The notes beneath the pieces are model-generated. The model was given only the letters and a program-made list of their open reading frames with translations. It ran no database searches and was not told where the DNA came from. DNA of 64,000 bases. It comes from Chiloscyllium plagiosum. Its lineage: Eukaryota. A program made the position numbers and the translations under genes. Each line of letters starts with the position of its first letter. Position 1 is the first letter of the stretch. Location of the stretch: positions 10,252,206 to 10,316,205 of the forward strand of contig NC_057719.1 of assembly GCF_004010195.1 (NCBI RefSeq), given 5' to 3'. This document shows positions 6,296-58,380 of the stretch, one piece after another.

Positions 6296-6844
6296 CCAGC
6301 TTTGGGAAAAAACATTCAAATCATATTGCCATTTCAAAAATTAAAATAAATCCATGTTTTAATTTTTCAATGTCTTTCCTGTAAGTTTCCCAATAACTGG
6401 AGCACACTTGAGCAATTATGAATTGCTGATCTTTGTGCTATTTAACAACAGGACTGAACAGAAAAAGAAAACGTGGATAATTTCAAACAGGATCCCAAAT
6501 TGAATGGAAATACGTGAAAATCTCGTTAAAAGGTATCTAATGCAATTCAAGACAATTAGAGAACATGCTATGTTCACCTTTCAAAAGGCTCCACAAATGT
6601 AAAATATTAATAAAACTTGTCAGGATCTGTGGTTTTGAAAAACACTGTTGCTTTTATCACTCAATATGCTGGAGCTCTCCGAACATAGATATTTTTTCTC
6701 ATCAGAAGAGAGGCTTGTGTACCTCTGTATGTGAATGTAAATGGAGGCTCATTTTAAACTGATTTGGAGGTGCCGGTGTCGGACTGGGGTGTACAAAGTT
6801 AAAAATCATACAATACCAGGTTATAGTCCAACAGGTTTAATTGA

Positions 6845-6885
6845 AAGCACTAGCTTTCGGAGCGCAGCTCCTTCATCAGGTGGTT
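6845..6885 (-). ncRNA. Minimal type-I hammerhead ribozyme motif
   Basis: Minus: aaccac-CTGATGA-a-ggagc tgc gctcc-GAAA-GCTA-gtgctt; core, stem II and stem I (cac/gtg) intact. Confidence 0.8.
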
Positions 6886-7114
6886 CAACACTGTGATGTA
6901 ACTGAAATTATGCATTTAAAAATACCTTGATTGTCTGCTGAGTCTTTCATCTGTTCGAATGCCATGATAGTTTCACTTCATGGTATTCTGTCATGGTATT
7001 CGAACAGATGAAAGACTCAACAAACGATCAAGGTATTTTTCAATGTATAATTTCAGTTACATCACACTGTAAACTTTTGCTATAAATTCTGTGCCTTACA
7101 ATTGTGTCCTCCAC

Positions 7115-7155
7115 AACCACCTGATGAAGGAGCGTCGCTCCGAAAGCTAGTGCTT
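7115..7155 (+). ncRNA. Minimal type-I hammerhead ribozyme motif
   Basis: aaccac-CTGATGA-a-ggagc gtc gctcc-GAAA-GCTA-gtgctt; palindromic AGCT in place of stem III. Confidence 0.8.
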
Positions 7156-7511
7156 CCAATTAAACCTGTTGGACTGTAACCTGGTGCTGTGTGATTTTTA
7201 ACTTTGTACACCCCAGTCCAACTCCGGCATCTCCAAATCATGAAATTGAGGAGATTTTGTTCCGAAACTTTACTTGCTTGTAAAATGTAGAACTTCCAGA
7301 CTTGAAAGGCATGTCATATAACAGGTACAAAGAGTGCAAGGCCAATCTCAGCGAGTGCAAAATGGGTGCAATGCATTCAGCCAACCATATATCAACAGCG
7401 GGTCACAAACAAGGATTCTGACCATATGAGATGGTCATCAGAGGTGCTGATTTCACAAGCTGACATTGGGTGGAAACACTGCTCTATCTGCGGGCTGCAG
7501 ATCAAATCCAT

Positions 7512-7695
7512 TTTTTTTATTTTCTACATTCATGGGATGTAGGCATCACTGGGTGGACCGGCATTTATTGCCCATCCCTAATTTCCAAGAGGGCAGTTAA
7601 GAGTCAACCATATCGCTGTGAGTCTTGAGTCACATGTAGGCCAGAGCTGGTAAGGTTGGCAAATTCCTTCCCAAAGGACATTAGTGAACCTGAAA
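7512..7695 (-). mobile_element. 3' half of a tRNA-derived SINE with a LINE-shared tail
   Basis: Reverse complement of ...ttagggatgggcaataaatgc...cccatgaat tail. Confidence 0.75.
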
Positions 7696-7721
7696 TGGCA
7701 CCAAATGTCTACAACTGAAGT

Positions 7722-8262
7722 TAACAAGCAGGAGGCTGGAAGAACACAGCGTCAGGAGGTGGGGAAGTTGACGTTTCGGGTATTAACCCTTCTTCAAGAA
7801 AAAGGTGGGTGTAGAGGGAGCTGCAGATAAAGAGGGGGAAAGGTTTTGGGTGGGTAGAGAGACGAAATGGTGAGGTAGTGATAGGTGAACGCAGGTAGTG
7901 GGCATGACCTGATAGGTCGATGGCAGGAATGAATCCATTTGGTAGCTGGAAGGAAGAGTCAGAAGGTAGAATGGAAGGAAGGAGGCGGGGCTCTACCAAC
8001 CAGATTCATCCCTCCCATTGACCTATCAGGTCATATCCACTACCTGTGTTCACCTATCACTACCTCACCATTCCACCCATCTCCCCACCCAAAACCCTTG
8101 TTCCGCTCTTTGTCTGTAGCTCCTTCACCCCACCTCCATTCCTGAAGAAGGGTTAATACCCGAAACATCAACTTCTCCACCTCTTGATGCTGTCTGTCTT
8201 GCTGTGCTCTTTCAGCCTCCTGCTCACCTACTTTGGATTCCAGTATCTGCCGTTTTGTTGTG
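7722..8262. mobile_element. Penelope-like terminal repeat, family B, inverted pair
   Basis: Arms 7722-7970 and 7995-8225 are reverse complements; decayed hammerhead cores at ~7762-7800 (-) and ~8138-8175 (+, CTGAAGAAGGGTTAATACCCGAAAC). Confidence 0.8.
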
Positions 8263-8960
8263 TCTGCGACTGGCACAGGGCTGGTGCCTGAAACTCTGAC
8301 TGCCTTTTCACTGGCGGTTTCCTGGAGTGGGGTGCATTACAGTGAGTGTACAGAGCAATTTGTGGAATTAATTTATCACTCTATGCAAAGATCTCCACTT
8401 CCACCCAACAACAAATTCAGTCGCTGGGGAATGCCATTGTGCTAGGCCTAGAAGATGCCATACTAGATTATTACACAAGATGCAGCACATTTAACCAAAG
8501 AAGCAAAGTGATGTGGAAACTTTGATCCCACATTTTGAATTAACTGGATCTTACCAATAACTCATTGTATAGTGCATCTTTGAAAAGAAATGAAAGAAAC
8601 AAAGATATACCTTCTCAACATCTACAAGAGGAAAAAATTCTGAACGACAAATTTACATTTTATTGCGCAAAGTAAAATACAAATTTGATTCATTCAGTGC
8701 ATTTAGTCTTGGAGAAGGTTATGGCCTAGAAGTATCACCCAGGATGATTGTCAGTGTACAGGGATTATCTTATGAACAGCCTCTAAGCAGGTTGCACTGC
8801 AGTTTAGAAGAATGAGAGATGATCTCATGAAACACAAAGGGTTCTTAGGGGGCTTGACAGGTAAATACTGAGACGGGTACGTCCCTTCATGGGAGTGTCT
8901 TGGACCAGTAATCCAGAGATCTTGGAATTTGAATTAAATAAGCATCTGAAATTATGAGTC

Positions 8961-9110
8961 TAACATGCAGGAGAATTGCCATTCCTGACGCAGGGCTTTT
9001 GCCTGAAACGTTGATTCTCCTGCTCCACGGATGCTGCCTGACCTGCTGTGCTTTTCCAGCACCACACTCTCGACTCTAATCTCCAGCATAATCAGTCCTC
9101 ACCTTTGCCT
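8961..9110 (+). mobile_element. Penelope-like family B terminal repeat inserted into a SINE (SINE spans ~8905-9335)
   Basis: 10-bp duplication attatgagtc at 8951-8960 and 9111-9120; hammerhead core mutated (CTGACGC). Confidence 0.8.
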
Positions 9111-9824
9111 ATTATGAGTCGAATGCTGACCATGAAACCATTGTCGATTGTCTGAAAACCCATGAGGTTCACAAATATTCTTTAAGGAAGGGAATCTGCC
9201 ATCCTTACCTGTTCTAGCCAACATGTGAGTCCAGATCCCCAGGAATATGTCTGATTCAATTGGGCAATTAGGGATGAGCAATAAATGATGGTCCAGCCAG
9301 TGATATCGACATCCAATGAACGAATGAAAGAAAAGTCTTTTGTGACTCTCATGTGCTGTCACTGAATTCTTGTTTAGCAATGAATTACCTGAATACCTGA
9401 TGCTGTTGCATAGGGAGAGAGCAGAATGAGGCTATTGGGTTGGATGATCAGCCATGTCCGTGATGAATGGTAGAGCGGGCTCAAAGGGTCAAATTGGCTC
9501 CTTCTCTCTTCTATGTTTCTATGTTTGTATGATTATTTTTCAATGCACAGGATTTATTTATTTCACAAAGTGTGGATACTTGGTAGATACTTGCATAAAC
9601 AGCCCAGCAAACAAGCCTTAAGTTAAACAGCACATCACTGAATCCACCAAAATGCAAAACATAAGCAGTCAATATTACAGGAAGCTTGAGCCAGTATTGT
9701 ATGTCCATACAGAAAACAAGCAATGTACTGGTTTTCAGAGTGCAAATATCTTAGTAATGATTTTGGAAATACAAGGAAGCAACCATACTAAAATCAAATT
9801 TCTTCACTCAGGGTGACCTTTAGA

Positions 9825-12945: not shown

Positions 12946-12948
12946 TTT

Positions 12949-13465
12949 TGGATAAGCGGTTCAAGGAGCATCTCTGGTCCACATGCATGAACCAACCCCA
13001 CCGCCCTGTGGTCAACCACTTCAACTCCCCCCCCACCCCCTCAAGGACATGCTAATCCTCCACTGCCAAATCAAAGCCACCCTCTGACTGGAGGAATAAG
13101 GCATCATCTTCTGCCTCAGGACCTTACAACCCTACGACATCAACACTGACTTCACCAGTTTCCTCATTTCCTCTCCCCCACCACCTCATCCCAGATCCAA
13201 CCCTCCAACTCGGCACCACACTCTTCACCAGTCCTACCTGTCCATCTTCCTTCCCACCGACCTGTCACAGCTACTCTCCACCTGCATCTACCTATTGCCA
13301 TCCCAGCCCCCTAGCCTCCAGCTTCACCCCCACCCTCCTATTTATCCCTCAACCTCCTTCCCTCTCCACATTCTTTATGAAGGGTTTTTGCCCGAAACAT
13401 CAAATTTCCTGCTCCTCGACCTGTTGACCTGCTGTGCTTTTTCCAACGCCACACCTTTCGACTCT
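12949..13465 (+). mobile_element. Penelope-like element 3' end: GIY-YIG endonuclease C-terminal remnant plus family B terminal repeat
   Basis: From 12951: DKRFKEHLWSTCMNQPHRPVVNHFNSP...EE*GIIFCLRTLQPYDINTDF, then a C-rich UTR and decayed hammerhead at ~13372-13405. Confidence 0.85.
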
Positions 13466-13486
13466 GTATGTCTCTATAACTCAATG

Positions 13487-13667
13487 CCTTGAGAGTGTGG
13501 TGCTGGAAAAACACAGCAGGTGAGTCAGCATCTGAAGAGCAGGAAAATTGATGTTTCGGGCAAAAGGCCTTCATCAGGAATGATGGCTCATTCTGCCTGG
13601 CCCACTGTGCTGTTCCAGCACCACACTCTTAACTCTAATCTCCAGTATCTGCAGTACTCACTTTCAC
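13487..13667. mobile_element. Penelope-like family B short inverted pair
   Basis: 15-bp duplication ctctataactcaatg at 13472-13486 and 13668-13682; minus-strand CTGATGAAGGCCTTTTGCCCGAAAC. Confidence 0.8.
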
Positions 13668-13859
13668 CTCTATAACTCAATGAGTCCTTTGAGAAAATAA
13701 CTGATCTATATTGATGATCACTAACCTGAGAACATCCCAAAGTTCTCCCTGGGCAATAGAGTCCTGCTGTAAAGTCATATCCATAGCGAGATCCCACAAG
13801 TGGCAAAGGGACAGTGAGGCGATTTAATTGTCTTTCTTTCGTGATGCTAGCTGAGTGAT

Positions 13860-17225: not shown

Positions 17226-17758
17226 ATCCTACAAAAGTTTGACATGGCAGATCTTAAAATTTCAGTTCAATAAAAATCTGGAATTAAGAATTGAATGGTG
17301 ACCATGAACCATTGCCAATGGTTGTTCAAAACCCATCTTGTTTACTAACGTCCTCTACGGGAGAGAACTGCTGGCTCGCCTGTGACTCCTCCAGAGTCAC
17401 ACCATCATGGTTGACTCTGAACTGCCCTCTCAAATGGCCCTGGCAAGTCACTCAGTTGTAACAATTACGAGAAAACCTACTGCAGGGGTTCGAGAAAGCG
17501 GCTCACCATCGCCTTCTCAAGAGCAACTAGGGACGGGCAATGAATGCTGGCCAACCAGTGATGCCTATGTCCTTCGAGTGAATCGAAACAGAAAGCTCAC
17601 CTCGCAAAGCTTCAGGAAGATTGACGATGAACCTGACAGACTTCCAGCCCTTTCAGGAAGGTTAGAGACAAAAATAAGCTGCAGATGCTGGAATCCAAGG
17701 TAGACAGGCAGGAGGCTGGAAGAACACAGCAAGCCAGGCAGCATCAGGATGTGGAGAA

Positions 17759-17791
17759 GTCAACGTTTCAGGTGTAACCCTTCTTCAGGAC
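17759..17791 (-). ncRNA. Hammerhead ribozyme motif in a Penelope-like repeat (repeat ~17662-17811)
   Basis: Minus: gtc-CTGAAGA-a-gggt tac acct-GAAA-CGTT-gac; stem I gtc/gac. Confidence 0.7.
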
Positions 17792-18654
17792 CTTTCGCCA
17801 CCTCCTGATTCTCAGGAAGATTCTCACTCCTTCTCATGGGGAGAGAGAGGGAATTCTTGATAAGTCCACAGAAGGAGCATGGAAATAATGGAAGGACCAG
17901 TGCACGAACTGCAAGACTTACCTTCATATTTAATGCTTCGGATAAACTGAGTTAATCTTCTTACATAGACCTACTTCCAATCAATAATATATGCACAGTA
18001 GACAGGAAATTACATTGCCTAAAATGATTTTTTTAAAAAACAGATACAACAAGGAGCGTTAATTTTACTATCTACAAATTTAACCTTTTACAGAGGGATA
18101 GCTCCGACATGAGCTCCCCAATATCTCCATGCACAGTGGAAATTGCTACAGTCACCTTGTGCAATAAAAGGCTGTACAGCTGTACTCACAATCCATTGAT
18201 ACAGCTGGTAGCTCAGTGAAGAGAAACGTGAACAGCAGAGTGCATGCCATCCAGACACAGCGATGTTTCAGCCTCGGCCACACACTGCAGAAAAATCTGA
18301 ACACAGAGTTCTGCAAAGGCCTGTGCTGAAACTTGGTGCTAGAGCCACATTATTATTCAACGCTCGCCTTCTGTCAGAGCAGTAAGCAGGGCCTACGTTA
18401 GTTCCTGGCCAAGAAACACCTTGATCTTGACACTATTGTTTTCAAATACTTCCATGCCCCCAACCCCGCGCTGTCTCTGAAATCTCCAACCCCAGAACCA
18501 TCAGACGTATCTGCGTTCTAGTTTTTTTTTTAAGCATCTCCCATTTTAATTGCTACAACATTGGTGGCCATAGAATCAGAGTGTGATAGATTCATACAGG
18601 GCAGAAGAGGCCCTTTGGCCCACCAAAGCTGACAAGTGGACAGCACAGTGGCTC

Positions 18655-18842
18655 CAGAAGCGGCAGGGACAGACCACTATAAACACCGGAGGAAACATCA
18701 AAGAAGCGCTTCGCAGGAGGCTCCCAAGCACTGATGATGTCGCCTAGCCAGGAGACGAAACGTTTGCAACAAAAACTTCCAGCTCGGCGAACAGAACCAC
18801 AGCAACGAGCACCCGAGCTACAAATCTTCGCACAAACTTTGA
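18655..18842 (+). mobile_element. Penelope-like terminal repeat, family D, young, inserted in an HE1 head
   Basis: 10-bp duplication acagtggctc (18645-18654, 18843-18852); CpG-rich; contains a hammerhead motif. Confidence 0.8.
18728..18767 (+). ncRNA. Minimal type-I hammerhead ribozyme motif
   Basis: gca-CTGATGA-t-gtcgcct agcc aggagac-GAAA-CGTT-tgc; stem I gca/tgc; stem II with one mismatch. Confidence 0.82.
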
Positions 18843-19190
18843 ACAGTGGCTCAGTAATTACCACCTCTGCCTCACCGGGCAAGGGACCTGGATTTGATTC
18901 CGGCCTCGGGCAACTGTATGTGTGGAGTTTGCACATTCTCCCAGTGTCTGTGTGTATTTCCTCCAGGTGTTCCGGATTCCTCCCAGAGTCCAAAGATGTG
19001 CAGGTTAGATGGGTTGGCCATGCTAACTACCCACAGCATCCAGGGATTTGTAGGCTAGGTGGATTAGTCATGGGAAATGCAGGGTGACAGGGTAGGTAGG
19101 GGTGTGTCTGGGTAAAGATACTCTTTGGAGGGTTGGTGTTGACTCCGTGGGTCATATGGCCTGCTTCCACACTGTAGGGATTCCATGATG
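18843..19190 (+). mobile_element. HE1 V-SINE (head starts ~18638)
   Basis: A/B-box-like head, V domain, tail ccacactgtagggattc. Confidence 0.9.
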
Positions 19191-20294: not shown

Positions 20295-20790
20295 AATGCA
20301 AAAACATAGTGAATACTGAAGAAACTCAGTGTATCTGGCAGTGCCTGTGGAGAAAGAAAAAGAGTTAACATGCAAATCCGGTACCCCTCTTCTTCAGAAC
20401 TGAAAGATGTTGGAATTTGTTTAATACACTTTTCAGAGAGATGGAGGAGGGGCAAGTGTCTGTGTTTCTTGTTATCTTTGCCCTCAGGTACGAGGACTCT
20501 CTCTCTCCCTTTCACACCTTAACTTACACACATCTTAAATTCCTTTTCTCTTTCACATCATTCACAATCTTTCTCCTTTGCCTCCATACCATCTGCCCTC
20601 TTGCTCCTCCTTCGCCTGTATAACAAGTATAAAATAACAATTCCAACCACATTCAGTTCCAAAAAACAGTCACACTAGAGCTGAATCATTAACTCCGTTT
20701 TTCTCTCTCCACAGATGCAGCCAGACCTGCTGAGTTTCTCCAGCATTCTTTGTGTTTGTCTCAGATTTGTAGCACCTGGAGCGTTTTGCT
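20295..20790. mobile_element. Penelope-like family C inverted pair, decayed
   Basis: gaagaaactcag...tctggcag...gagttaac...cttcttcagaactg mirrored by cagttcc...ttaactc...ctctccacagatgcagccagacctgctgagtttctccagca. Confidence 0.6.
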
Positions 20791-23434: not shown

Positions 23435-23816
23435 AATGGAGTTAGGCTATTCTAAGCCTGACTGAGTTTAATAACTTTAGCAAAACAGAAAGAATCTCTC
23501 AGCAGCTGATGGAATGAACCAGGAAACATGAATTCACATTTTTGGGCTCAGATTTTCTCCCCAAGTCAGGGTCAGGCACGGAGTTGGGTGATATACAGTT
23601 TCTGTACACCTAACTTTTAAAATCCATGGATATTTGAGCAAGGGGTGGGAGCTGAATTTTATATTCAGAAGGGTCCAGGAAGTTCCCAGAAGGCAGGGTG
23701 GAGGGAAAGCTGTCTCGGGGACTCTGCCACTGTATGCAGAGTTTGAAATGAAATTTAATCAGAAAATGTCTCTCACCCTTTATTCCATTCCTTATCCAGC
23801 CAAACAATAAGGCCAA

Positions 23817-26989: not shown

Positions 26990-29290
26990 CTCATTCCATG
27001 TATCGATCTGATAAACCTCCTGGGAAAGCAGATTTTATTAAAATAAAGCAAGATCTGGCCAAAGGTGATTGAGAACTGTTACTTGTGGGCAAGTCTACAG
27101 CAGACCAGTGGGGGATATTCAAAAAGGAGCTGAGGAGAATGGAGATACATTTTACAGGAGAATGTAGGAGCAATAAGTTCAGAGAACTCGATGTCCAGGA
27201 CAATTCAGGACTTGATGAGGAAGAAGAAAAAGGCTTTTAGCAAGTTCAAAGAGAGCAATTCAGCTGCAGTCCCACAGGAAGATAGATAGTACAAGACAGA
27301 GCTTAAGAAAGCAATTAGAAGAGCAAAAAAAAGCACAAGAAAGGATTCGCTAACAGGATATATACAAATACATCAAAGGGAAGAGGTTAACTAGGGCAAG
27401 AGTAGGATTCATTAGGGACCAAGGGGACAATCTGTGTGTGAAGCTGCAGGATATTGAGAGGATGTTAAATAAGTACTTCTCTTCAGTCTTTCCTCTGGAA
27501 AAGAAGAATGTGGGTATGGAATTCAGGAAAGTGGACTGGGAGGAACGGGCACAGTTTGACATAGGAAATAGGGAGGTAATGGAGGCTCTGTGAGGCTTAA
27601 AACAGACAAATCCTGTGGCCTGGATAAATTGCACCCCAGACTGCTTTGGGAGATGATGCAGGAAATTGCAGGGGCTCCAACACAATTTTTTAATTTCTCT
27701 CTGGCCACAGGGGATGTGCCAGAGGACTGGAGGACTGGTAATGTGGTTTCACTTTTCGAGAAAGCTGGTAGAGATGAGCCAGCAAATTACAGATCAGTGA
27801 ATCTCATGTCACGACTGGAGAAAATTCTGAAGGACAGAATTAATACCCACTTGAAAAAGCTTGGCTTAATTTGGGATAGTCAGCATGGCTTTGCGAGAGA
27901 GATGTCATGCCTAATAAATTCAGTTAGAATTTTATGAAAATGTGATCATTTGTGTGGATGAGGGAAGTTCAGTTGATGTAGTTTATATGGAGTTTAGCAA
28001 AGAAACTTAATGCACATGGAATTCAGGGAAACCTGGCGAGATGGATCAGAAATGGGCATATTAATAGGACACAAAGGGCAGTGGGTAGAGGGATGCCTAA
28101 GTGACTGGAGGCCGGTGTCCAGTGGTGTACTACAAGGATCAATAGTGGGACCCTTATTGTTTGTTATACACATAAACGATATAGATGAAAATGTGGGGAG
28201 AATGTTAAGCCTGTTTGCAGACAACACCAAGATTGGTTGGATAGTTAATTGTGAATAAGATGGTTGTAAGTTGCAGGAAGGTATAGATGGGTTGGTCAGA
28301 TGGACTGAGCAGTGGCAGACAGTATTTAACCCTGATAAGTGCAAGGTGACGCACTTTGAAGAAATAAGATGAGGGAGTATTTAATGAGTGGCAGGACCCT
28401 GTGTAGCTCAGAGGAACAGAGGGATCTTGGGGTAATTATTCATCGATTCCTGCAGTCGGCAAAGAACGTGAATAGGATTGTTAAAGAAGGCATTTGCTTT
28501 CATTAGTCATGACTGAGTGTATTAGAGGTAATATTGGAGTTGCACAGAGCATTGATCAGGCTACAGCTGGAGTAATGTGTGCAGGTCAATTCACCTCACT
28601 ACAGGAAGGATATGATAGTATGAGAGGGTGCACAGAGGAGGTTCACTCGGATGTTGCCTGTGATGGAGCAATTGGGCTATGAGGAGAGATTACGTAGGCT
28701 TGGATTGTTTCTTTAGTCATGATGTGGAAGTGTTGGTGTTGGACAGGGGTGGCCAAAGTCAGAAGTCACATGACACTAGATCATAGTCCAACAGATTTAT
28801 TTAAAATCACATGCTTTTGGAAAACCTCACCTGATGAAGCAGAAGCACTCTGAAAGCTTGTGACTAAATAAACCTGGACTATAACCTGGTATCATGTGAC
28901 TTCTGATTCTGTTTTCTTTAGAGCAGAGATGGTCAAGGGGCAATGTGATTGAGGTATATAAGATTATAAGGGGTATGGTCAGGGTGAGTAGAGAGCTGTT
29001 CTCCTTGGTTGAGGGGTCAATCATGAAGGGGCAAGACACTTAGATGGGATTTGAGAAAAAAACCTTTTTCACTCAGAGGGTGGTGGAAATCTGGAATGCA
29101 CTGCCTAGGAAGGTAGTGGAGGCTGGAAACCTTATTACCCTTAAAACAATATTTGGATGAGTACTTGAAATATCATAACATTCAAGGAGGTGGGACAAGT
29201 GCAGGAAATTGGGATTCGAGCACTTTTAGTGGAAATTATTGTCGGTGCAGACTTGATGGGCCTTTTCTGTGCTGTATGACTCTATGACTC
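26990..29290 (+). mobile_element. CR1 LINE ORF2, 2.3 kb, decayed
   Basis: KSCGLDKLHPRLL..VPEDWRTGNVV..NYRSVNL..SQHGF; SGVLQGSIVGPLLFVIHIND..LFADNTK; tail tatgactctatgactc. Confidence 0.93.
28717..28908. mobile_element. Penelope-like family A inverted pair, decayed
   Basis: Homologous to 6760-7240; ctcacCTGATGAagcagaagcactctGAAAGCT; flanked by near-duplicated tgtt(t)tctttag. Confidence 0.75.
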
Positions 29291-31521
29291 CTCTGAACTG
29301 TCTCCAATGCATTTACATCCTTCCTTCAATAAGGAGACCAAAACTGCACACAGTAGTCATGATGCAGTCTCATGAATGCCCTTTATAACTGAATTACAAC
29401 ATCCTTAATGTTTTGTTCAACTTCTCTCATAATAAATGATAGCATCCTATTCGTCTGTTTGATCCTGTGATGTAACCACAGTCTAACTCATTCTCTCAAA
29501 CTCCAAGATTCCTCTGCATCTTGGAGTTTTGCAGCTGTTCTGCACTGAAGTACCATGCTGTTTATTCCCTCCTCCTGCCCGAATAAACAAGTTCACATTT
29601 AGTGTGGTACCTTTTAAAATTCCTCTTGCAATCCAAGTACAGTACATTCACAGGACAGGACCTGGTTCCCCTTTATCCACAGCGCTTGTTACCCCTTCAA
29701 AGAAATCTTCCTTCCATGGAACCATGTTTCCAGGGATGTGCAGGCTAGGTGGGTTAGCCATGGTAAAGGTGGGATTATAGGGACAGAGTGTGGGTGGCAT
29801 GCTCTTGGAAGGGTTGGTACAGACTCGATAGGTCAAATGGCCTCTTTCCACATTCCAGGGATTTTATGAATCTATGATTCAATGTTGACTTATCCCAAGT
29901 GTTTTTGGTTTTCTAAATATGCAGCTACATTGAGTTTAATACCTTTCCAATGATGAACATTACCCTAACTGGCCTGTAACATATTGTTTATTGCTTCCTG
30001 TACCTTCTTGAACAGAGGGGTTACATTTGTCATTTTTCAGACGATGGGACCTTTCCAGAATCAAAGCAATATTGGAAAATTAACATCAACCCATCTATTA
30101 GCTCACTAGCAACCTCTTTTAAGATTCGAGAATTAAGTCCATCTGGACTTAGTCAAGAATGCCAGTTCACTTCAGCTAGAGACAAAGAAATCTGGAGATG
30201 TTGGAGTCCAAGGTAGATAAGCAGGAGGCTGGAAAAACACAGCAAGCCAGTTCACTTCAGCAAGCTCAGTTTTCATATCAGAAGTCACTATATCAGACCT
30301 CTCTGAAAGCTTGTGCTTTCAAATAAACCTGTTGGAATATAACCTGCTGTCATGTGACTTCTGATCTTGTCCACGCCAGTCCAACACCAGCACCTCCACA
30401 TTATAGCTTTTATGCCAACGTTGTTGCCCTTACTTAGATTTAAAATGCTTACAGTAGTGCCAATCTTCTCCCTTTCGAACTGGATGTTATATTCAATCTT
30501 ATTCTGGTCTCTTCTACATGGGGGTGCCTTTACTCGGAGGTCATTAATTAATGCTGCCACATTACACAACACCGAGTCTAATAAAACCTTCTGCCCAGTC
30601 AGTTCCAAAGAAACAATCTCACAAGCATTCTAGGATCTTCTCATCCAGACAACTACTGCTTATCACATTTCTCCAATTTAACTGTAAATGAGAATTCCTT
30701 TATTAGTGAGGGGATCAAGGGTTATAGGGAGAAGGCAGGTAAATATGGTAGAAAAACATATCAGCCGTGATTGAATGATGAAGCAGACTCAATGGGCTGA
30801 ATGCCCTAATTCTATTCCTGTATTTTATGATCTTATCACAAGCAGCAATTATTTCTTCCTGCATACTTTGAACCACATTGTGGATATTGTGAATTTCTTC
30901 CCTCAGAGCACTGTGGGTCTGCCTACAGTATCTGGACTGCAGCGGTTCAAGAAGACAGCTCACCACCTCATTCTCAAGGGCAACTAGGGACAGGCAATAA
31001 ATACCTGCCTGTCAGCAATGCCCACATGCCACAAGAGACTGTTTTAATAACCATTCAGGAGCCTGTACACACTCTATTAACTGCTTCCTCAAATATTCAT
31101 CCCCACCATCCAAACTAATTCTACTTCCTCACCTCCTAAACCAAGGTCGTCTCTAACTATTGCATAAATGCCATTCTCGACTAACAATGCAGCCCTCCAC
31201 CTTTACCTAGCTCCTTGTTTTGAATGAAGGTCATATAAGCATCAAAATGCAGGACTCAATCCTGTTTATCTTGTAGATACCTCTCCATATGGCTATTAAA
31301 CTATATTTATTTACTTCTATCAATTAATTTACTTTATTTTGCTCTAAGCGTTTAGACATAGTCATAGATTCTTTAGTTTTGCTACCTTTGCATTATCTAA
31401 TCATCATTGTTGATGTATTCCTAAGTTTGTTTGCTCTGTTCCTTCCTGTCATCCTCTGCACCTCATATCCTATATTACTCTGTTCCTCTCTTCCCTTCTC
31501 ACACCTTTCCACACTTGACCC

Positions 31522-35613: not shown

Positions 35614-35791
35614 GACAAACCAAAATAACTGCAGATACGGTAAAACAGAAACAAAAACAGAAGTTGCTGGAAAAGTTAACGTTTCAGGTCCGGTGACCCT
35701 TCCTCAGTTCCGAGAACCCGAAATGTAAACTTCACTTCACAGATGCTGCCAGACCTGCTGAGCTTTTCCAGCAACTTCTGCCTTTTGTTTT
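35614..35791. mobile_element. Penelope-like family C inverted pair inside a DeuSINE
   Basis: 12-bp duplication acacaactaaaa (35602-35613, 35792-35803); minus CTGAGGA-a-gggtc accg gacct-GAAA-CGTT. Confidence 0.78.
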
Positions 35792-36211
35792 ACACAACTA
35801 AAAAAGATCATCTTATAATTTATCTGATGGGAGTCTGAAAAGATCTTGCTTTGTGCAAACTGACAGCAGCTTCTGAATGAGAGACAAAGTTAATGTTTCA
35901 CGTCAACCGCTGAATCTTCCTGCTTCACATTCAAACTGTCCTAAATTCACTACTGGTGTTTTCCATTTTGTCTTTTTTGTGCTTTCAACTCACATCACGG
36001 TGGTTAAAAAAAAATTGAAGTGAACAATATATTTGATCCAGCTCTTTTTACAACATAGTTGAAATAATCATTTAACAAATGGAATGTAATGGATAAAATT
36101 TGCATTAACAGCTGTGTTCGTGGTGCTCATAACATCATGGAATTGGATCATTAAATTCTATGTACTTCTTTTAACAGAAGAGGAATTGAAATTAAACCAC
36201 TTTTCACTGTG

Positions 36212-36515: not shown

Positions 36516-38067
36516 GATTTTGTGGCATTACAGACCACAGCAGTTAGCAAAACAAAATCGGTGAGAGACCTCAAAAGAACTATTCAAGATTGAAAGGTGG
36601 CCAGCTTTAACAAGGTTAAAGTGTCAAGCCTCCATTCCAATGCATAACAACTCATTTTTAAACATCCTGTAGATTCTTTTTCCACTCTTTCTTCTTTTTG
36701 AAAACTTCTGCAAGTCATTCCTGCTGCCTCATGAAATGCTAAAAGTAGAAAAGGTTCTTGTCTGAACAACAGCATATAGTTTTTAATATGCTGTCTGACA
36801 AAATGCATTCATTCTATCTTTCAAAGGGGGCATATATTCAGTAGCTAATGGCTGAGTGAGGTCAACATTTCAAAAGACGACCACAAGAAACTGCTACACT
36901 TTGGACAAAGCCTGATGTTATGAAAGGAGCTATATAAATGCAAAGTCAAAATCAAGTCCAACCAAGTCCCAGCTCTGGCTGTTTCCAATCAAATGCTTCA
37001 TCCGAGAACAGTTTTCCGCATGCTTGCATTCACAAGTGGAATTGTTTTCAGAGCTTCAGTAGGGATACTGGCTCTCATTCAAATTGAGGGTAAGTGCAGA
37101 AGCGGTCAGTGTGACAGCAGACATATGGCTCCATTTTGTGTCATTGCTGCGGCAAGATAATGTCAAGCTTTGCCTGGAGTTGGTCGCCCGCTCAGGGGCT
37201 GAACACATGGAGAAGGTCAGACATTTATGGAACTGAATTAGTCTTATGTTCACATGAGTACAGTGAAAAGTTTACAAGTCACTACTTGCAGTGCCATCTC
37301 AGGTACAAAGGTACCTAGTTACAACTTGTTCAGAACAAATTCGCAAGCAAAACAATAAACATCCAGCATATATACCCTTAAAAATATGAAATTGTGGTAT
37401 AAATTAGAAAAACAAAGAAATAAAAAGTTCAGGGTAAGAGTCCTTCCACGATAATATCCCAGGCAGCAGCCAAAGCTGGTGAAAGGGGTCCCAGGCCAAG
37501 TTAGATAAACTGTGAAGACCATTAGACCATAAACCATAGGAGCAGAAATTAGGCCATTCAGCCCTTTGAATCTGCTCTGCCATTCAATTATGGCTGTTAA
37601 GTTTCTCAAACCCATTCTCTTGCTTTCTCTCCATAACTCTTGATTCCCTTTACAATCAGGAACCTATCTATCTCCGTCTTAAACATCCTTCCACAATAAT
37701 ATCCCAGCATCTTAGGATGCTGCAGAAGCCTCCAGGAAAACCTGGACCATTGGAATCCTGGGACCGGCCCCCATGTCATCTCCAAAGCAGCCCGGATGAA
37801 GGACACAGCCATGAGGAATGGCCAGATCCACACCACATTTTCCACTGCAGCAGCCTCTCGGAACCTCCTTCCTCACCCAAAGCTGCCATAGGACGGTAGG
37901 ATAAAGGGATGCAGTAGGCCTGGTGATACGAAGCAGGTGGGCCCGGAATGTGAATACTACCCACCCGGCCATTCACTATCCAACTGCAGAACAGCACATT
38001 CATTTGTGGTCGGGAACAAAAAATGGTAGAATCACAGTGGGTCAGGTAGCACCTGTGGAGAGGCAGC

Positions 38068-38107
38068 GAGCTAACATTTCGAGTCGAGTTGACTCTTCGT
38101 CAGAGCT
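38068..38107 (-). ncRNA. Hammerhead motif (family C), one CpG-type change in the palindrome
   Basis: Minus: agct-CTGACGA-a-gagtc aactc gactc-GAAA-TGTT-agct. Confidence 0.6.
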
Positions 38108-38264
38108 GAAGGCATTTATCGTTATTTGACGAGCACAGACAAGTGTGTGGTGCAGGAAAAGCACAGCAGGTCAGGCAGCATCCGAAGAGAAGGAGAATCG
38201 ACATTTTGGGTCAAGGCCTTTCATAGGGAAGCACAGACATTCAGGAGTCACACAAACAATGAAG

Positions 38265-38482
38265 GGGAGAAAGTGAGGCCTGCAGATGCTGGAGATCAGA
38301 GCTGAAAATGTGTTGCTGGAAAAGCGCAGCAGGTCAGGCAGCATCCAAGGAGCAGGAGAATCGACGTTTCGGGCATGAGCCCTTCTTCCGGAATTCCTGA
38401 AGGGCTCATGCCCGAAACGTCAATTCTCCTGCTCCTTGGATGCTGCCTGACCTGCTGCGCTTTTCCAGCAACACATTTTCAG
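38265..38482. mobile_element. Young Penelope-like family B inverted pair (single-arm copy at 38142-38229)
   Basis: Near-perfect palindrome centred on gaattc; 12-bp duplication caaacaatgaag (38253-38264, 38483-38494); neighbour flanked by agcacagaca. Confidence 0.85.
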
Positions 38483-39459
38483 CAAACAATGAAGAGGCTC
38501 TTGTTTTTCTTTCAGGTAACATCATCAGACGGGTCAGCCCAGAGTGACAAAGGCTGCTCTCACCAGGCTCCTTTGACAGCATCTTCTAAAACTTCCACCT
38601 TCTGGAAGGACATCAGCACTACAGGCAGAGACAGGAGGCAGTGATGTTCTGGTTATGTCACTGCACTAGTAATCCAGAACCTTGGGCTTACACACTGAGG
38701 ACACGAGTTCAAATTCCACCGTGAAATCTGAAGTAGGGGGCATGGTTATAGAATAAACGGTCACTCAGTTAAAACTGAGATGTGAAGGCATTTCTTCCTA
38801 GAGGGTCGCAAACATCTGGAATTCTCTACCCTGCAGGCTCCATCACTGAAAATATTTAAACAGGCAGTCGATAAGATTATTGAAATATCAGGATTTTGAG
38901 TCAGTGACACAAAAGAGGAGTTGGGGGCCTGAGGTAGATCAGCCATGATGTTGTTGAATGGTGGAGCAGGTTTGATGAGCTGAATGGCCTACTCCTGCCC
39001 CTCTTTCTTATGCTCTTCTGTAACAATTGACCTCAACCACCCAACTAGACAGGAAGGGGTAAGAAAATAGCCAGAATTCCCTGAAATGGTGGAGAAATTT
39101 CTTCAAGCAGAGTGTGGGACCCCTCTGCCACATGAAGAAGTTGAGGCCAAAACATAAAAGGCTTTCAAGGTGGAATTAGATAAGGTTATTAGGGTGAAAG
39201 GGATCAAAGGGTATGAAATGCACAGAGTACTGAGTTGGTTGATTGGCTATGATCATAATTAATGACAGAGCAGGTTCTGAGCAGGCACTGCCCGACTCGT
39301 ATTTATGATGTTTCTATATAATTAGGATTGAGTAACTTCAATTGGATGGTGGTTGTGAATAAGACTTTTCCTTACTCATTCACAGGGTTGTTGGGCCTTG
39401 TTCATTCGGCCAGCCAGTCCTGGCGTCTTTCACAGTTAAGTATTTTTTATTATTATTAT

Positions 39460-42145: not shown

Positions 42146-42911
42146 CACGGCCATTTGGGAAATGACTTTCACTGCTCCAGAAGACAGCGTACAAATATGT
42201 GAACCCAGAAAAGAGCTTTAAGCAACCCAATACTAAGGATTTTTATATCTTGATTTATTTGTTTCTCCCCAGCAACTACTGGGATAATTTTAAAAGATAA
42301 TCAATTCATTCGGATGACTCAGGGACTAACTGTTCCTGACACCTAGTATTCACAGGCAAGTTATCAAAGGAAACTTGATTCCAACCCAATAAAGAAAGTA
42401 CTTGGTCTGGTAACCAAAGGCTTATTCAAAGAAATGGGTTCAAACAGGGGTCTTTAAAGATGAATAGGGGAGGGATAAGGGTCAACAACAAAGGAATATA
42501 ATTTTAATGTGAAAGGCAGGAGGTTTAGAAGGGATTTGAGGAATTCTCTCTCACCTAGAGGATGGTAAAGCTCTGGAATGCACTGCCTGGTGAACAGTGG
42601 TGGGGATGGTAATTGAAGAGGGAAACTGCACAAACTTTAAAATGTACTTTGGATGAGCACAATAAATGTCCATCATATTCAAGGCGATGGGCCTAGTGCT
42701 GCAGGGTAAGACTAGATTTAGAGTAATTTTTCTTGTTGCTGATTCGATGGGCTGAAGGGCCTTTTTTGTGTTAAATGTTTCCATGATCCATGTGACTCTC
42801 AACCCATAACCGAGTGGTTGTCTACTCACTGACCCCTTCAGTGGCCTAGCGAGAAAAATAAAATAAAACTTGGAATGGAAGAATTCGAACAGACCATTCT
42901 GTCCCTTGTTC

Positions 42912-43432
42912 AGAGAGGGGTGCTGGAAAAGCACAGCAGGTCAGGCTGTATTCAAGAAGCAAGAAAATGAATGTTTCGGGCAAAAGCCCTTCATCAGGAA
43001 TGATGCTGGGAGCCTCGGGGGTGGAGACATAAATGGGAAGGGGTGGCGTTGGGGGGAAGGTAGTTGAGAGTGCAATAGGTAGGTGGAGTTGGGTTAAAGG
43101 TGATAGGTCGGAAGGGAGGGTGAAGTGGATAGGTGGGATGGAAAATGGACAGGTAGGACAAGTCATGAGGGTGGTGCTGAGCTGGAAGGTTGGAACTAGG
43201 ATAAGGTGGGGAAGGGGAAATGAGGAAACTGGTGAAATCCACATTGATGACGTGGGGTTGGAGGGTCCCGAGGCGGAAGATAAAACATTCGCCCTCCAGG
43301 TGTTGGGTGGTATGGGAGTAGCAATGGAGGAGTCCAGGATCTGCATGTCCTCAGTGGAGTGGGGTGGGGGTGGGGGGTTGAAGTGTTCAGCCACAGGGCG
43401 GTGGGGTTGGTTGGTGTGTCTGTTCTGCCATT
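42912..43432 (-). mobile_element. Penelope-like element 3' end (GIY-YIG remnant plus terminal repeat with hammerhead core)
   Basis: Minus HTNQPHRPVAEHFNPP..HSTEDMQILD; CTGATGAAGGGCTTTTGCCCGAAAC at ~42973-42997; homologous to 12949-13465. Confidence 0.85.
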
Positions 43433-44504
43433 TATAGAATCCGTGAATCATACAGCACAGAAACAGACCCTTTGGCCCAACTAGTCCATGTTGGCCATAA
43501 TCCCAAACTATACTAGCCCCACCTACCTGCACTTGGGCCATATCCCTCCAAGCATTTCTTATTCATGTACTTATCCAAATGTCTTTTAAATATTGTAACT
43601 AGAACCACATCCGCCACTTCCTCTGGAAGTTCATTCCACACATAAACCATTCTGAGTAAAAGAAATTGTCACTCATGTTACAGAGTCAACATCTTTTTAA
43701 AATCTTGCTCCTTTCACCTTAAGAATACGCTCCCTTGCTTTGAAATCCTTCACCAACCCCATCCCAGGGAAAAGACATCTGCCATTCATCTTATCTACAC
43801 CCCTCATTATTTTATAAACCTCTGTGAAGTCATCCTCAACCACCTAAGTTCCAGTGAAAAAAGCCCCAGCCTATTCAGCCTCTCCTTATGACTCAGACCC
43901 TCCATTCTCAGCAACATCCTGGTAAATCTTTTCTGATCCTTCTCCAGCTTAAAAATATCCTTCCTATAACAGGCCTCAATAGCTGAGCTGAGGCCTAACT
44001 CCAAATACCTGCATTTGACCCATATTTATCTTTCTCAGATTTAAAACTAACAACTGATTCTGCATCCATTGCCATTTGTGGAAGAGAGTTCTAAACCTCT
44101 ACTGCCCTTTGTATGTAGAAGTGCTTCCTAACATCTCTCCTAAACAGTCTGACCCTAATCCTCAGACTATGCCCCTAGTTCTAGAATTCCCAATCAGTGG
44201 AAATAGTTTATCTTCACCTATCCTAATGTTTCCTGTTAACACCTTGAAGACTTCAATTAGGTCAATCCTTAAGCTTCTAAATTCTCAAAGAAAAGGCCTA
44301 ATTATTTGGGTAATCTCTCCTCATAACCTAACCGCTGAAGTCCAGGTATCATTCTTCTAAACCCATGTTGTATCCCCTCCAAGCCAATATATCCCTCATA
44401 AGGTGTGGTACCCAGATCTGCTCAAAGTACTCTAAGTGAGATCCAAGTAAGGGTTTTGGATAACTGAACAGGAAATTTTGGCTCCTTTGATAATAGATGC
44501 TTTC

Positions 44505-45072: not shown

Positions 45073-45074
45073 AA

Positions 45075-46599: not shown

Positions 46600-47063
46600 C
46601 AAACACACTGACCAACAGGTTCAAGAACAGCTTCTTCCCCGTTGTTGTTAGACTGATGAATGGACCTCTCAAATTTCAAATCTAATGTTGATCTTTGTTA
46701 AAAGTCACACACCACCAGGTTATAGTCCAACAAGGGTATTTGAAGCACTAGCTTTCGAAGCGCTGCTCCTTCATCAGGACAACCACCAGATGAAGGAGCA
46801 GCACTCCGAAAACTAATGCTTCCAAACAAACCTTTTGGACTATAACTTGGTGTCGCGTGATTTTTAATTTTGTACACCCCAATCCAACTCCTGCACCTCC
46901 AAATGTTGATTTTGTATACCTCCTGTGCAGCTGTATGCCTCGCTCTGTCCAAGCACCCTATGATCTGTATGTCCTTCTATGTTATGATCTTGTTTGTAAT
47001 GCACACAAAACAAAACTTTTCACTCTACTTAGGTACATGTGACAACAATGAATCAAATCAAAT
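46600..47063 (+). mobile_element. Rex1/Babar 3' end interrupted by a Penelope family A inverted pair (46693-46901)
   Basis: TNRFKNSFFPVVVRLMN; insert flanked by aatgttgat (46684-46692, 46902-46910); (aaatc)n tail. Confidence 0.8.
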
Positions 47064-51289: not shown

Positions 51290-51858
51290 TTGACTGGCCA
51301 TTCAGCCCTTCGAGCCTGCTCCGCCATTCAGTGTGATCATGGCTGATCATCCAACTCAGCCCCTTGTTCTTGCTATCTCCCCATAACCTTTGATCCTTAA
51401 GAATGGTGTCTAATTCCTTCCTGAAAACATTCAATGTTTTGGCCTCAACTGCTTTCTGTGGCAGAGAATTCCATTGGTTCACCACTCTCTGGGTGAAGAA
51501 ATCTCTCTTCATCTCAGTCTTAAATGGCTTATCCCGTAACTTTATACTGTGACCCCTGGTTCCCGACTCCTTGGTCATCAGGAAAATCATTCCTGCATTT
51601 ACCCTGTCTAGTCCTGTTAGAATTTTACAGATTTCTATGAGATTCCTCCCTCTTTTTCTAAGCTCCACTGAATGTAGTCTTAACTGATCCAATCTCTCTT
51701 CATATGTCAGTCCTACTATCCCAGCAAGCAGTCTGGTAAACCTTTGTTGCACTCCCTCCATGGTCAGAACATCTTTCCTCAGAAAAGTGGACCAAAACGG
51801 CACACAGTATTCAAGGTGTGGTCTCACCAAGGGCCAGTATAATTGCAGCAAGACAATC
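51290..51858 (-). mobile_element. CR1 LINE 3' fragment
   Basis: LQLYWPLVRPHLEYCVPFWS..TRGHSIKLR..FFTQRVVNQWNSLP. Confidence 0.92.
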
Positions 51859-52747
51859 AATCGAACAATAAGGAATCAGTTGACTTTTCAATGGACATGG
51901 TGTGCAGTGGGGATGGTGATTTAAACCAAGTATGGGGAACAGGCAATGCAAGACAATGAGGAGTCACAGCATGAAACCCCTTCCTCCTTTATGGACTGAT
52001 TTGGAGATCACTTAGCACCTTCTCAAGATATCATTGATGAGAGATGGAATCTGACAAGAAAGGAAATGGTGGCCAAGACACCACAAACTAGCAGCTCATG
52101 ACGTAACTCAAAATGAAGTGCCAACATGGCTTTTTAACCAACCATTAAATCAATGAATATCAAAATACTGCATGAACTTGGAGTGCCTCTAACACAGGAA
52201 TAAAGTGGTGCCTGTATGAGATTTTGAAAGCATAATGGAAACTAGAATTGGCTTTGCCCGCAAAAACTGCAATATTGATCGAGATTGTAAGTGAAATTAT
52301 TGTGTTATCTTTCTGAAGTGTCTCCTTCTTGAAGTGGATTGCAAAAGGTCAGTAACGAAATACTGATTGTGATAATTATGAAATACGTGTGGATCTTCCA
52401 TAGTGTTACTCATGGTTACAGGAGAGCAGTCACTGATACAGCAGTGCTAAAAGCACGTGTTAAATTGCTTTACAGTAACTTGGTAAGTTTATTGCATGGT
52501 CACATTGTTGAACAGACAAAGGACAAAGTAAACATTGTACGAATAATAAATCACTCCCAAATGAAAAATTTGCTTTGCAGACTAATAGCTTGGCACAATA
52601 ATGAAAGTGGGACAATTTCTATGGTCAGTTTTACATCCAAAGGGAAGGTACAATCTGCCCCAAAGGTACTCAGGGTAAAAACATACAAGATATTATTGGG
52701 GTGTAACAAAAGCCATCCAGTTTAAAACTTGCCTTGATCAAGATCTT

Positions 52748-55499: not shown

Positions 55500-55817
55500 T
55501 TACATTTTCCATCGTATCCACTACAGTTTGGAAAGAGACCATTAAGCCCATCAAGTCCCACCCAGACCAAGCCCCTCACTCTATCGCCATAATTGCACAT
55601 TTACCATGACTAAAACACCTAACCTGAACACTATGGGCAATTTGGCATGGCCAATCCACCCCAACCTGCACATCTTTGGACTGTGGGAGGAAACCAGAGC
55701 ACCCGGAGGAAACCCGCACAGACACGGGGAGAATGTGCAAACTCCACACGGACACCCAAAGCTGGAATGGAACCCGGATTTCTGGCATTGTGCTAACCAC
55801 TGAGTCACCATGCTGCC
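55500..55817 (-). mobile_element. HE1 V-SINE
   Basis: Minus gggcagcatggtgactcagtggttagcac head; V domain. Confidence 0.9.
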
Positions 55818-56048
55818 CTAAACCGGCCTACATTTTTTGCAGGTTACTCAAAGATGCCAGATTAGACACTGAATGAAATGCTTGTGTTTTGTGATAAAGG
55901 CATGTTCAGTTGTATTGGTGAAACAGCACCTCAGTACTATACATAGCAATGAATATTTTTAAAGCGCATGCTGCCTGGCAGGGCTAGCTCATAGAAGATT
56001 TTACATTTGAGATTGTGCAATTTGAGCTCTGTCCTTTGTTTTTGTAGC

Positions 56049-56220
56049 TGAAAATGTGTTGCTGGAAAAGCGCAGCAGGTCAGGCAGCATCCAGGGAACA
56101 GGAGAATCGATGTTTCGGGCATAAGTCCTTCTCCTGTTCCCTGGATGCTGCCTGACCTGCTGCGCTTTTCCAGCAACACATTTTCAGCTCTGATCTCCAG
56201 CATCTGCAGATCTCACTTTC
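56049..56220. mobile_element. Young Penelope-like family B inverted pair, hammerhead cores deleted at the centre
   Basis: 17-bp duplication tcctttgtttttgtagc (56032-56048, 56221-56237); arms are perfect reverse complements. Confidence 0.85.
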
Positions 56221-57134
56221 TCCTTTGTTTTTGTAGCAAACTGCAGTTTCTAGAGTTGAGCCCATAACTCTTATAAATTGCGTGATACACCATTTCACAT
56301 ACCATGATGAAAATACTGCACCACAGAATTACAATCACCATTTTAATTGAGTTATTTCACACTGTAAGTTATCCACCATTCAAAAGTCAGAAAAAGAATC
56401 AAATTGCTGAAATATCATTCAAACTCAAGCCTCGAGTCATATCTATTCATAAGAATTAAAATTAAATCCAAGCAAAATAATACATCAAGATCATCAACTT
56501 AACAGTGCTTAACTTGCAGAATAATTTACGCTGTCTCAGAATTCAAGTGTTCGCAATAAAAAGTTGAGAGTATGTCAGAATATTAGTTTGTTTCAATTCT
56601 GTTCCATTGTATTATTGCAATCATTGGTCTCATTGAAACATATAGGATTCTTATGGGATTTTTCAGGTTAAATGCTGGGTGGATGTTTCACCTCAAGGGA
56701 GAGTCAAAGACCAGATATCATTGTCTCAGTTTAGGGGAGCGTCAATTTAGGGCTGACATGAGGAGGAATTTCTTCTCTCAGAGGGTTGTGAGTCTGGAAC
56801 TCATTGTTATGGAGAGTTGTACAGAAATTTGTGTATCTTTAAATCTGAGACAGATAGATTCTTGACCAGCTGGGGAAATCAAGGGTTACAGGTAAAGGAC
56901 GAAAAGGTGGATGCAAGGAATGTAGGCTCAGCCATGATCTGATTAAATGGCAGACCTGGCTCAAGGGGCCAAATGGCCTCCACCTGTTCCTATTTCCTAT
57001 AGTCAATGTGTAAATGGTTAAAAGCAAAGCTGCGAGATGTGCCCACCTCTGACACCTTGTAATGTAGAGGCCAACATTTTCTGGATAAAATCTCAGTGAA
57101 AACAATCCTTTTACGAATGAATTTTTGTTCCATT

Positions 57135-58380
57135 TAGATATGGAATGAGGGCACCATGGGCTAGGACAACGTTTGTTGTCCATCACTCGGTATCCTACAA
57201 AAGGCTGCAGTGATCCACGATCTTGAATCGCTGAAGTCCACATGGTGCTGATAGGAATGGAATTCTCGGATTTTGACATTGCAGCAGTGTTGGAATAGCA
57301 ATATGCTTCCAAGTCAGGGTAATGTGCGACTTGGAGGCAAACTTGCAGGTGGAGCTGCTGCCCTTGTGAAGTTGCTGCAACACAATTTGTATATTGTATA
57401 AAACTGCTGCCACTGTGCTTCAGAGGGAGTGAACGTTTAACTCGGTGAATAGGGTGCCAATCAAGTGAGCTGCATTGTCATGAATGGTGCTGGGCATCTC
57501 ACCCAGGCAAGTGGAGAGATTTCCATCACACATGGAGACAGAAGGGCTGCAGATGCTGGAGCCAGAGTCAATAGGTGTGAAGGTGGAAAAACACAGCAGG
57601 TCAGACAGCATCCGAGGAGTAGGAAGGGCAACGTTTTGGCTTTCCTGCTCTTCTATGCTGTCTGACCTGCTGTGCTTTGCCAGATTCACATCTATTGACT
57701 TTAAATTCCATCACACACCTGGCTTATGCCTTGTAGATAATGGGCAGACACTGGGAGATAGGAGGTGAGTTACTCACTGCAGAATATCCAGCTTTTATCT
57801 GATCTTATAGTTACACTGTTCATATGGCTCATACAGCTCAGTTTCTGGTCAATGGTAATCCCTAGGATGTTGACAGTAGGAAATTCAGCAACCTTGAACT
57901 CAAGGCAAGGTGTTTGATTCTCTCTTGCATGAGATGTTCATTGCCTGGCACTTGTGAGGCACAAATGTTGCTTGCCACTGACCAACCCAAGTTCAAATGT
58001 TGCCCAGGTCTTGCTGCATTTAGACACAGAGTGCTGAGGTATCTGAAGTGTTGTAAATGGTGCTGAACAGTGTCCAATCATCAGCTTACATCCACACTGC
58101 TGATCTTCAGAGTGAAGAAGTAGCTGAAGATAATTGAGCACAGGACATTAGCCTCAGTAACTGTTTAGCTCTCTTGTGATATAGTGGTAGTATCCCTACC
58201 TCTGAGCCTGGGGCCCAGGTTCAGGTCCCACCTGCTCCGTAGTTATCTGCTCCATGCCCCTTAAGAGATGCCCTGGAGCTGAGGGGACTGATGTCCAGCA
58301 TCCAAACAGTTTTCCTCAGAGCCTGGGCATGCACATTAAACAGCTGTAACAGCATTTGATCAGAATTTCGAAAGTCTTAT
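57135..58380 (-). mobile_element. Ancient CR1-clade LINE 3' part with nested Penelope pair (~57532-57703) and SINE head (~58175-58240)
   Basis: Minus HITLTWKHIAIP..PCGLQRFKIVDH; AKPGQHLNLG/QWQATF-type RT C-terminal region. Confidence 0.7.

Follow-up and report, generated by a model that had tools for sequence, protein, structure and literature searches.

A 64-kb stretch of the Chiloscyllium plagiosum genome (contig NC_057719.1, positions 10,252,206 to 10,316,205; hereafter the window, numbered from its first letter) carries 29 distinct copies of short repeat ends in 20 insertion units, located between 6760 and 57703, in which the layout of a minimal type I hammerhead ribozyme recurs. The copies were collected by BLAST with 11 seed copies across the window; one 15-nt match at E 0.02 was discarded and duplicate rows were merged by eye. 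They comprise seven copies of family A, 20 of a B group (B1, B2, B3 and fragments) and one each of families C and D, which are single copies in the window and are called families by difference only. The about 20 short insertions of an original prediction, made from the letters of this window alone, were thus recovered. We propose that these units are very probably 5'-truncated, often fold-back insertions of the pseudo-long terminal repeats (pLTRs) of several Penelope-like element (PLE) families, each with the known minimal type I hammerhead. The motif has likely been kept by selection in active source elements, and the copies in the window are most likely inert and decaying. The window itself has a G+C content of 43%, and 35% of it matches itself elsewhere in the window.

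The families are told apart by helix II. Stem II is GGAGC/GCTCC in family A, with the palindrome AGCT; GGGC/GCCC in family B, with ACGT and with GGGT/ACCC variants; and GAGTC/GACTC in the one family C copy (38103, minus strand), whose downstream box is common to family B. The one family D copy (18731, plus strand) has the remaining stem II type named in the original prediction, all four of whose types are present. The core CUGANGA and GAAA, U16.1 and H17 are all kept in 11 of the 29 copies, seven of which have a perfect 4-nt palindrome. A loose search for CTGANGA..GAAA returned 14 occurrences, which is not significant against 200 shuffles (mean 6.8, maximum 16), and the Rfam hammerhead models, which had been suggested as a check, gave no match up to E 5-10, whether with the whole window or with two short stretches. 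Taken by themselves, these two results would favor a chance match of the motif in repeat-rich sequence. A structural descriptor gave a different picture, with 15 matches at no more than one core mismatch (0.395 expected, maximum 2 in 200 shuffles), 11 with an intact core (0.045 expected, maximum 1) and four in which the intact core is accompanied by all four helix II pairs and by three or more helix I pairs (0 in 200 shuffles); the reversed sequence, used as a control, gave none. Three of the four strictest matches have a perfect palindrome (6879 and 17788 on the minus strand, 7121 on the plus strand) and the fourth, family C, has ATGT. Family D joins this set only if one internal helix II mismatch is tolerated, and three to five of the 29 copies look complete.

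Pairing was counted with a script that anchored on 17 of the 29 copies, the 12 that are truncated or too decayed being excluded. Helix II positions 1-4 are paired in 16, 16, 16 and 15 of these copies, and positions 2-4 have changed on both sides. In helix I, position 2 is paired in 15, as A-U, U-A or C-G, and positions 1, 3 and 4 in 10, 9 and 10, helix I being weak in B1. The inner palindrome pair is G-C in family A and C-G in B and D. An extra nucleotide lies between 9 and 10.1, and 10.1-11.1 is G-C in 12 copies and G-U in four. There is no helix III; the palindromic segment 15.1-16.1 is AGCT or ACGT in 10 copies and a single-base variant in the other seven (ACAT in four, ATGT in two, AC in one). 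At the family level, 45 of 54 cells are paired compared with 31.5 after shuffling, and none of 10000 shuffles reaches 45; with three single-copy groups among the six and relatedness between groups, this figure should not be read as a strict probability. The descriptor counts, these matched changes between families and the agreement with a published consensus refute a chance origin, which we regard as scarcely credible. Both the shared layout of core and palindrome and the covariation around a fixed core, as originally described, therefore hold.

Family A is represented by four units. The first is a head-to-head inverted pair (6760..7243) whose arms are 92% complementary and enclose approximately 230 nt of partly palindromic upstream sequence. 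It holds two fully intact hammerheads, at 6851..6879 on the minus strand (core, helix II of 5 bp, AGCT, helix I of 3 bp; predicted cut after 6851) and at 7121..7149 on the plus strand (predicted cut after 7149). In the inverted pair at 28717..28906, the plus-strand hammerhead at 28831 keeps its core while its helix II is broken, the second arm is truncated, and the 9-bp target duplication is within the chance range. A plus-strand copy at 30296..30404 is truncated inside the hammerhead. The pair at 46697..46904 is joined at the hammerhead 5' edge and flanked by a 12-bp target duplication; its minus-strand hammerhead at 46777 has an intact core without helix I, and the plus-strand one at 46787 has one core change.

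Family B1 provides solo copies at 8979..9105 (plus strand; with tail, A9 changed, 13-bp target duplication) and 38137..38230 (minus strand; broken core, exact 10-bp target duplication), and inverted pairs at 13489..13669 (core intact and palindrome ACAT at 13577 on the minus strand; exact target duplication of 15 bp), 38266..38483 (junction immediately upstream of the core, damage in both cores, a tail on a single arm, target duplication of 12-15 bp) and 56046..56224 (truncation of both arms inside the core or past it, target duplication of 16-19 bp). Two longer B1 units, at 12948..13470 (plus strand) and 42907..43460 (minus strand), are taken up below. B2 consists of an inverted pair at 7724..8265, with hammerheads at 7797 on the minus strand (C3 changed) and 8142 on the plus strand (palindrome decayed to ACAT), a minus-strand solo copy at 17666..17795 whose hammerhead (17762-17788) is fully intact, with helix I of 5 bp and ACGT, and a minus-strand fragment without hammerhead at 30177..30250 (19-bp target duplication). 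The B3 pair at 35625..35790 has an intact core but no helix I at 35707 (minus strand) and a 14-bp target duplication. Less well preserved are a highly decayed B-like copy (35840..35930, minus strand), a B pair with no core in either arm (57533..57703, 14-bp target duplication) and a B/C-related fragment without hammerhead found by BLAST (20700..20790, plus strand). The family C copy (38000..38110, minus strand) has a hammerhead at 38073-38103 with an intact core, helix II of 5 bp, helix I of 4 bp and the palindrome ATGT. Three hammerhead-bearing minus-strand copies thus lie within 290 nt between 38000 and 38490 (C at 38103, B1 at 38227 and 38390); they are independent insertions, and only the family C copy has an intact core.

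The attribution of all four families to PLEs stood in the original prediction, and it now rests on family-specific evidence for B and D and on indirect ties for A and C. Two B copies run upstream through a C-rich 3' untranslated region (UTR) into a broken reading frame, at 12948-13162 on the plus strand, with a broken hammerhead at 13374, and at 43225-43418 on the minus strand, with a hammerhead at 42970-42997 (intact core, ACAT). Both remnants match protein P0004 (E 7.5e-13 and 6.4e-11), which in turn matches the C-terminal half of an open reading frame (ORF) in the marine contig L002 (E 2e-6), and that ORF is placed with GIY-YIG clusters at 0.97 (Atlas). This two-step homology chain places a decayed C-terminal GIY-YIG endonuclease upstream of the pLTR in both copies. 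An exhaustive search with the B remnant matched four short database proteins, P0004 among them, and a word-index search with a 45-residue B remnant found no match. From the features of that group, family B is putatively of the Neptune type.

Family D (18686..18847, plus strand), of Penelope/Poseidon type, encodes residues 12-55 of P0001, a 656-residue RVT_1 protein of Chiloscyllium, with 37/44 identities (84%), and by this similarity is the start of a Penelope-type reverse-transcriptase (RT) ORF. Its hammerhead (18731-18764) overlaps the ORF start: the ATG (18737) coincides with the beginning of helix II, and from it the predicted cut is 28 nt and the end of the protein match 111 nt downstream. 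A PLE-type RT linked to the repeat is seen in the window for D, and not for A, B or C. A TATA-like box (18678-18684) lies approximately 50 nt upstream of this hammerhead and fits a pLTR promoter.

The family A hammerhead recurs at 33/35 nt in two metagenome contigs. In L002 it stands approximately 750 nt after the GIY-YIG ORF, and the family A model matches this contig over model positions 3-123 (E 6e-8); in L001 it stands head-to-head with an RT fragment. No family A ORF is present in the window. The CX2-5CxxC-type linker in L002 makes family A a candidate 'Neptune'. The two contigs (L001 1-1050, L002 1-1470) belong to one PLE family: in L001 an inverted RT fragment meets the 3' UTR head-to-head, and L002 carries an open GIY-YIG end with a Cys-rich linker.

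The anatomy of the units is that of PLE insertions. Flanking direct repeats with at least 10 matches were found for 11 of the 18 units tested, with boundaries set by eye, against 33 of 1000 random window pairs. Nine of the 20 units are head-to-head inverted pairs, eight of which have a tail of approximately 35 nt on one arm only. An adjacent inverted 5'-truncated copy, a one-sided tail and target duplications form a known PLE insertion pattern (PMC8557442, PMC3846280). Sequence upstream of the cut site is still present in approximately 18 of the 29 copies; the inserted template was therefore likely uncut at the hammerhead, as is likewise reported for an Anolis element in vitro (PMC11167929). 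Several solo copies and inversion junctions begin 8 nt or less upstream of the core, which could reflect independent non-autonomous elements, similar to short interspersed elements (SINEs) or retrozymes, that amplify from short RNAs headed by the hammerhead; retrozymes have been described as pLTR derivatives, one chondrichthyan included (bioRxiv 10.64898/2026.07.22.740005). We consider this origin unlikely, because the 5' ends of the units form a continuum from within the repeat to within the endonuclease ORF and because fold-back with a one-sided tail is the standard PLE truncation pattern. Retrozyme arrays were rejected, as the window contains no tandem head-to-tail array of hammerhead units.

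For the truncated-pLTR insertions that we favor, the following course is proposed. A source element, likely in partial tandem, would be transcribed through the pLTR into the start of the next ORF, as suggested by PMC11167929 and in keeping with the family D geometry. The RT-endonuclease would nick DNA and begin reverse transcription at one or the other of two sites, separated by about 35 nt and lying approximately 90-110 nt beyond the hammerhead, which would give the optional tail. Early termination or fold-back of synthesis would usually produce short copies, solo or inverted, flanked by target duplications of 10-19 bp, and the template would likely be uncut at the hammerhead, as many copies hold sequence upstream of the cut site. 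By analogy with the literature, cleavage of source transcripts would require the pairing of two copies by their 4-nt palindromes, help from the element protein, or both. After insertion, selection would be lost and CpG decay would erode the palindrome, a decay that is seen for B1. The structures in this scheme are those observed in the window; its enzymology we infer.

Four public runs were aligned to 2.2 kb of the window (6990-9200) at 85% likeness. Run X19, the one informative RNA run among them, with single-cell poly(A) RNA from a related organism of which approximately 2% was read, gave 6985 aligned reads; its sister run X20 gave none. Over family A, the X19 first mates fall mostly on the minus strand (1334 vs 358 and 485 vs 74). 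As minus-strand first mates mean sense RNA in most stranded libraries, these reads are sense-biased by approximately 4:1 to 6:1, compared with approximately 1.4:1 over the B1 copy at 8988-9061, where both strands are about equal (791 vs 1072). Depth at the family A cut site is 2513. Poly(A) read ends occur at 7175 (868 reads) and 7179 (688 reads), 26-30 nt past the predicted cut, where the genomic template is not A-rich. A poly(A)-signal-like hexamer stands 10 nt past the cut site in this plus-strand copy (hexamer and poly(A) ends together span 7159..7179). ATTAAA or AATAAA is found 8-10 nt past the cut in three of five family A copies, the other two having variant hexamers, and 19 nt past it in L002.

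These poly(A) ends, the sense bias and the position of the hexamer raise the possibility that family A pLTRs act as 3'-end cassettes, in which the predicted cleavage, in a dimer or aided by protein, would strip PLE or host transcripts ending in them of the poly(A) tail, with a functional precedent in the Clec2 3' UTR hammerhead (PMC6765202). Such a role may coexist with truncated-pLTR insertion. We nevertheless judge it doubtful: the evidence comes from one run and one sample of a related organism, the sister run has no reads, and the aligned sequence of families B and D lacks a hexamer of this kind. At the cut site itself (7149), a 2-nt insertion that would change helix I is present in 637 of 2513 X19 reads, at 10% of the depth in X2 and at 0.1% in X15, which hints that few source loci or one subfamily may dominate the reads. 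In the four runs, no position on 6990-9200, the cut site among them, showed a pile-up of molecule starts or ends. The X19 molecules span the cut site and are thus uncut, and the cut product would be approximately 28 nt plus tail, a size below capture in a poly(A) run. Genomic family A copies run approximately 60 nt beyond the poly(A) site, so the tailed RNAs are likely not the insertion templates. Less likely again is a broader form of this proposal, in which the very abundant family A pLTR would serve cartilaginous fish as a mobile 3'-end cassette, with a working poly(A) site 26-30 nt past a dimer- or protein-gated hammerhead able to de-tail transcripts. A poly(A) signal downstream of PLE hammerheads was not found mentioned in the largely open-access literature searched, including terms in PMC3846280 and PMC2377424, and the coupling in family A, a hint from the RNA run of one relative, is the sole fresh lead of this analysis.

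The description of the locus as seeded with self-cleaving RNA motifs proved overstated: 18 of the 29 copies lack an intact core, palindromes have decayed, and the B1 core has diverged as much as its surroundings (7/66 in the core vs 30/297 downstream), being kept no better than the flanks. The changes from ACGT to ACAT or ATGT are CpG-type decay that breaks the dimer-forming palindrome. Intact copies of the same family do not stand in tandem, and the nine close pairs are inverted. The closest core-intact copies on the same strand are 1.0 kb apart and of different families, with same-strand distances of 1.0-17.9 kb. Dimers formed in cis by inverted pairs were rejected because a single transcript would hold one sense and one antisense copy and fold back into a duplex. 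It is thus very unlikely that the copies act here as self-cleaving elements that process a host transcript. In favor of such activity, all elements are retained in three to five copies, and the palindromes could pair between molecules in predicted 4-6-bp duplexes of about -4.5 to -5.7 kcal/mol. Minimum-energy folds of monomers and dimers, on the other hand, mostly give other structures and, for most copies, do not yield the hammerhead fold; no host protein domain was recognized among 129 non-repeat ORFs of at least 62 residues, a search that short exons would escape; and no X19 reads cover the unique flanks within the 2.2 kb at 6990-9200. The three domain matches among these ORFs are all reverse-transcriptase fragments (Pfam RVT_1).

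Several observations weigh against truncated, inert PLE insertions as the full account. Pfam recognized neither the B GIY-YIG remnants nor the L002 ORF, and tblastn of that ORF against the window gave no direct match. The tie of family A to a PLE ORF goes through contigs of another organism, that of family C through its similarity to B only, and no full-length element is present in the window. A clear target duplication is lacking in seven of the 18 units tested. The family A core is better kept (1/55) than its downstream sequence (30/264, a figure that contains subfamily differences and some flank), which may reflect subfamily differences or selection after insertion. In a relative, moreover, family A RNA carries poly(A) and shows a sense bias, which means that some copies are not transcriptionally silent.

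Other features of the window were recorded alongside the units. Rfam scores the fold-back pLTR pairs as microRNA precursors (five matches at E <0.1, below gathering scores; stretches 6915-7043, 38331-38453, 56071-56163 and 57584-57682), a similarity of which annotators should be aware, as such copies can pass as microRNA precursors; any transcripts of these pairs would be long hairpins that might give rise to small RNAs. Decayed fragments of long interspersed elements (LINEs), presumably of the CR1/L2 group, are abundant (3273-3521, 14857-15396, 23759-24241, 27998-28255 and 51177-51875; three with Pfam RVT_1), and one LINE 3' end is split by the B1 copy at 42907-43460. A minisatellite at 4067-6071 has a 40-bp period, 48.6 copies and 83% matches, with a plus strand strongly skewed to G and A. 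A tRNA-like stretch at 39713-39793 (Rfam 25.2 bits, under the cut-off) is probably a SINE head.

The class to which these motifs belong is known, as had been stated. Minimal hammerheads of metazoan PLE pLTRs were described in 2014 for fish, lamprey, coelacanth, frog and reptiles (PMC4209133). As reported there, they have the same core, the extra nucleotide after A9, G10.1-C11.1, a palindromic 15.2-16.2, no helix III and a short helix I, and they likewise occur as several families per genome, mostly as solo copies, with opposite-strand pairs 100-700 bp apart. Helix II is shorter in the window, at 4-5 bp in A, B and C. The published motifs cut weakly even as dimers (PMC4209133). Shark, Callorhinchus and Leucoraja had no matches in the one supplement file of that paper searched, and no shark-specific description of these hammerhead PLEs was found in the largely open-access literature; PLE-derived hammerhead repeats are reported in one chondrichthyan (bioRxiv 10.64898/2026.07.22.740005). 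The families in the window extend the class described in 2014 to shark families that are absent from the literature searched.

Family D resembles PAc, the Poseidon element of Anolis carolinensis (PMC11167929). Both have the ORF start at helix II, with the cut 28 nt after the ATG in family D and 26 nt in PAc, and the family D match ends at approximately +111, where the internal RT start of PAc lies at +111-118; family D is known here from a 160-nt fragment only. Cleavage of the Anolis hammerhead needed the element's protein, and RNA-seq showed no RNA ends at the cut site, as in the window (PMC11167929). Neptune-type endonuclease-positive PLEs (PMC8557442, PMC3846280) have the same C-terminal GIY-YIG domain followed by the 3' UTR and pLTR, and share the 30-40-bp tail on one end, the inverted truncated copy and the target duplications. 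Animal non-LTR retrozymes (PMC7229834; bioRxiv 10.64898/2026.07.22.740005) have the type I hammerhead and pLTR ancestry in common with the window families; they differ in being tandem head-to-tail units, and their canonical loop 1-loop 2 contacts are not evident in the window copies.

The mammalian Clec2 3' UTR hammerhead (PMC6765202) is cut upstream of a poly(A) signal, as is predicted for family A. It is a split, monomer-competent ribozyme at a single locus with a demonstrated effect on expression, whereas family A cleavage is predicted only. The role of PLE hammerheads is still called unclear (PMC8557442). If the poly(A) and cut sites of family A are coupled, this role would become testable in a high-copy family. 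A true 3'-end cassette would moreover provide PLE hammerheads with a concrete function, shutting off element mRNA or host RNAs, and would constitute a genome-wide analogue of the Clec2 3' UTR ribozyme.

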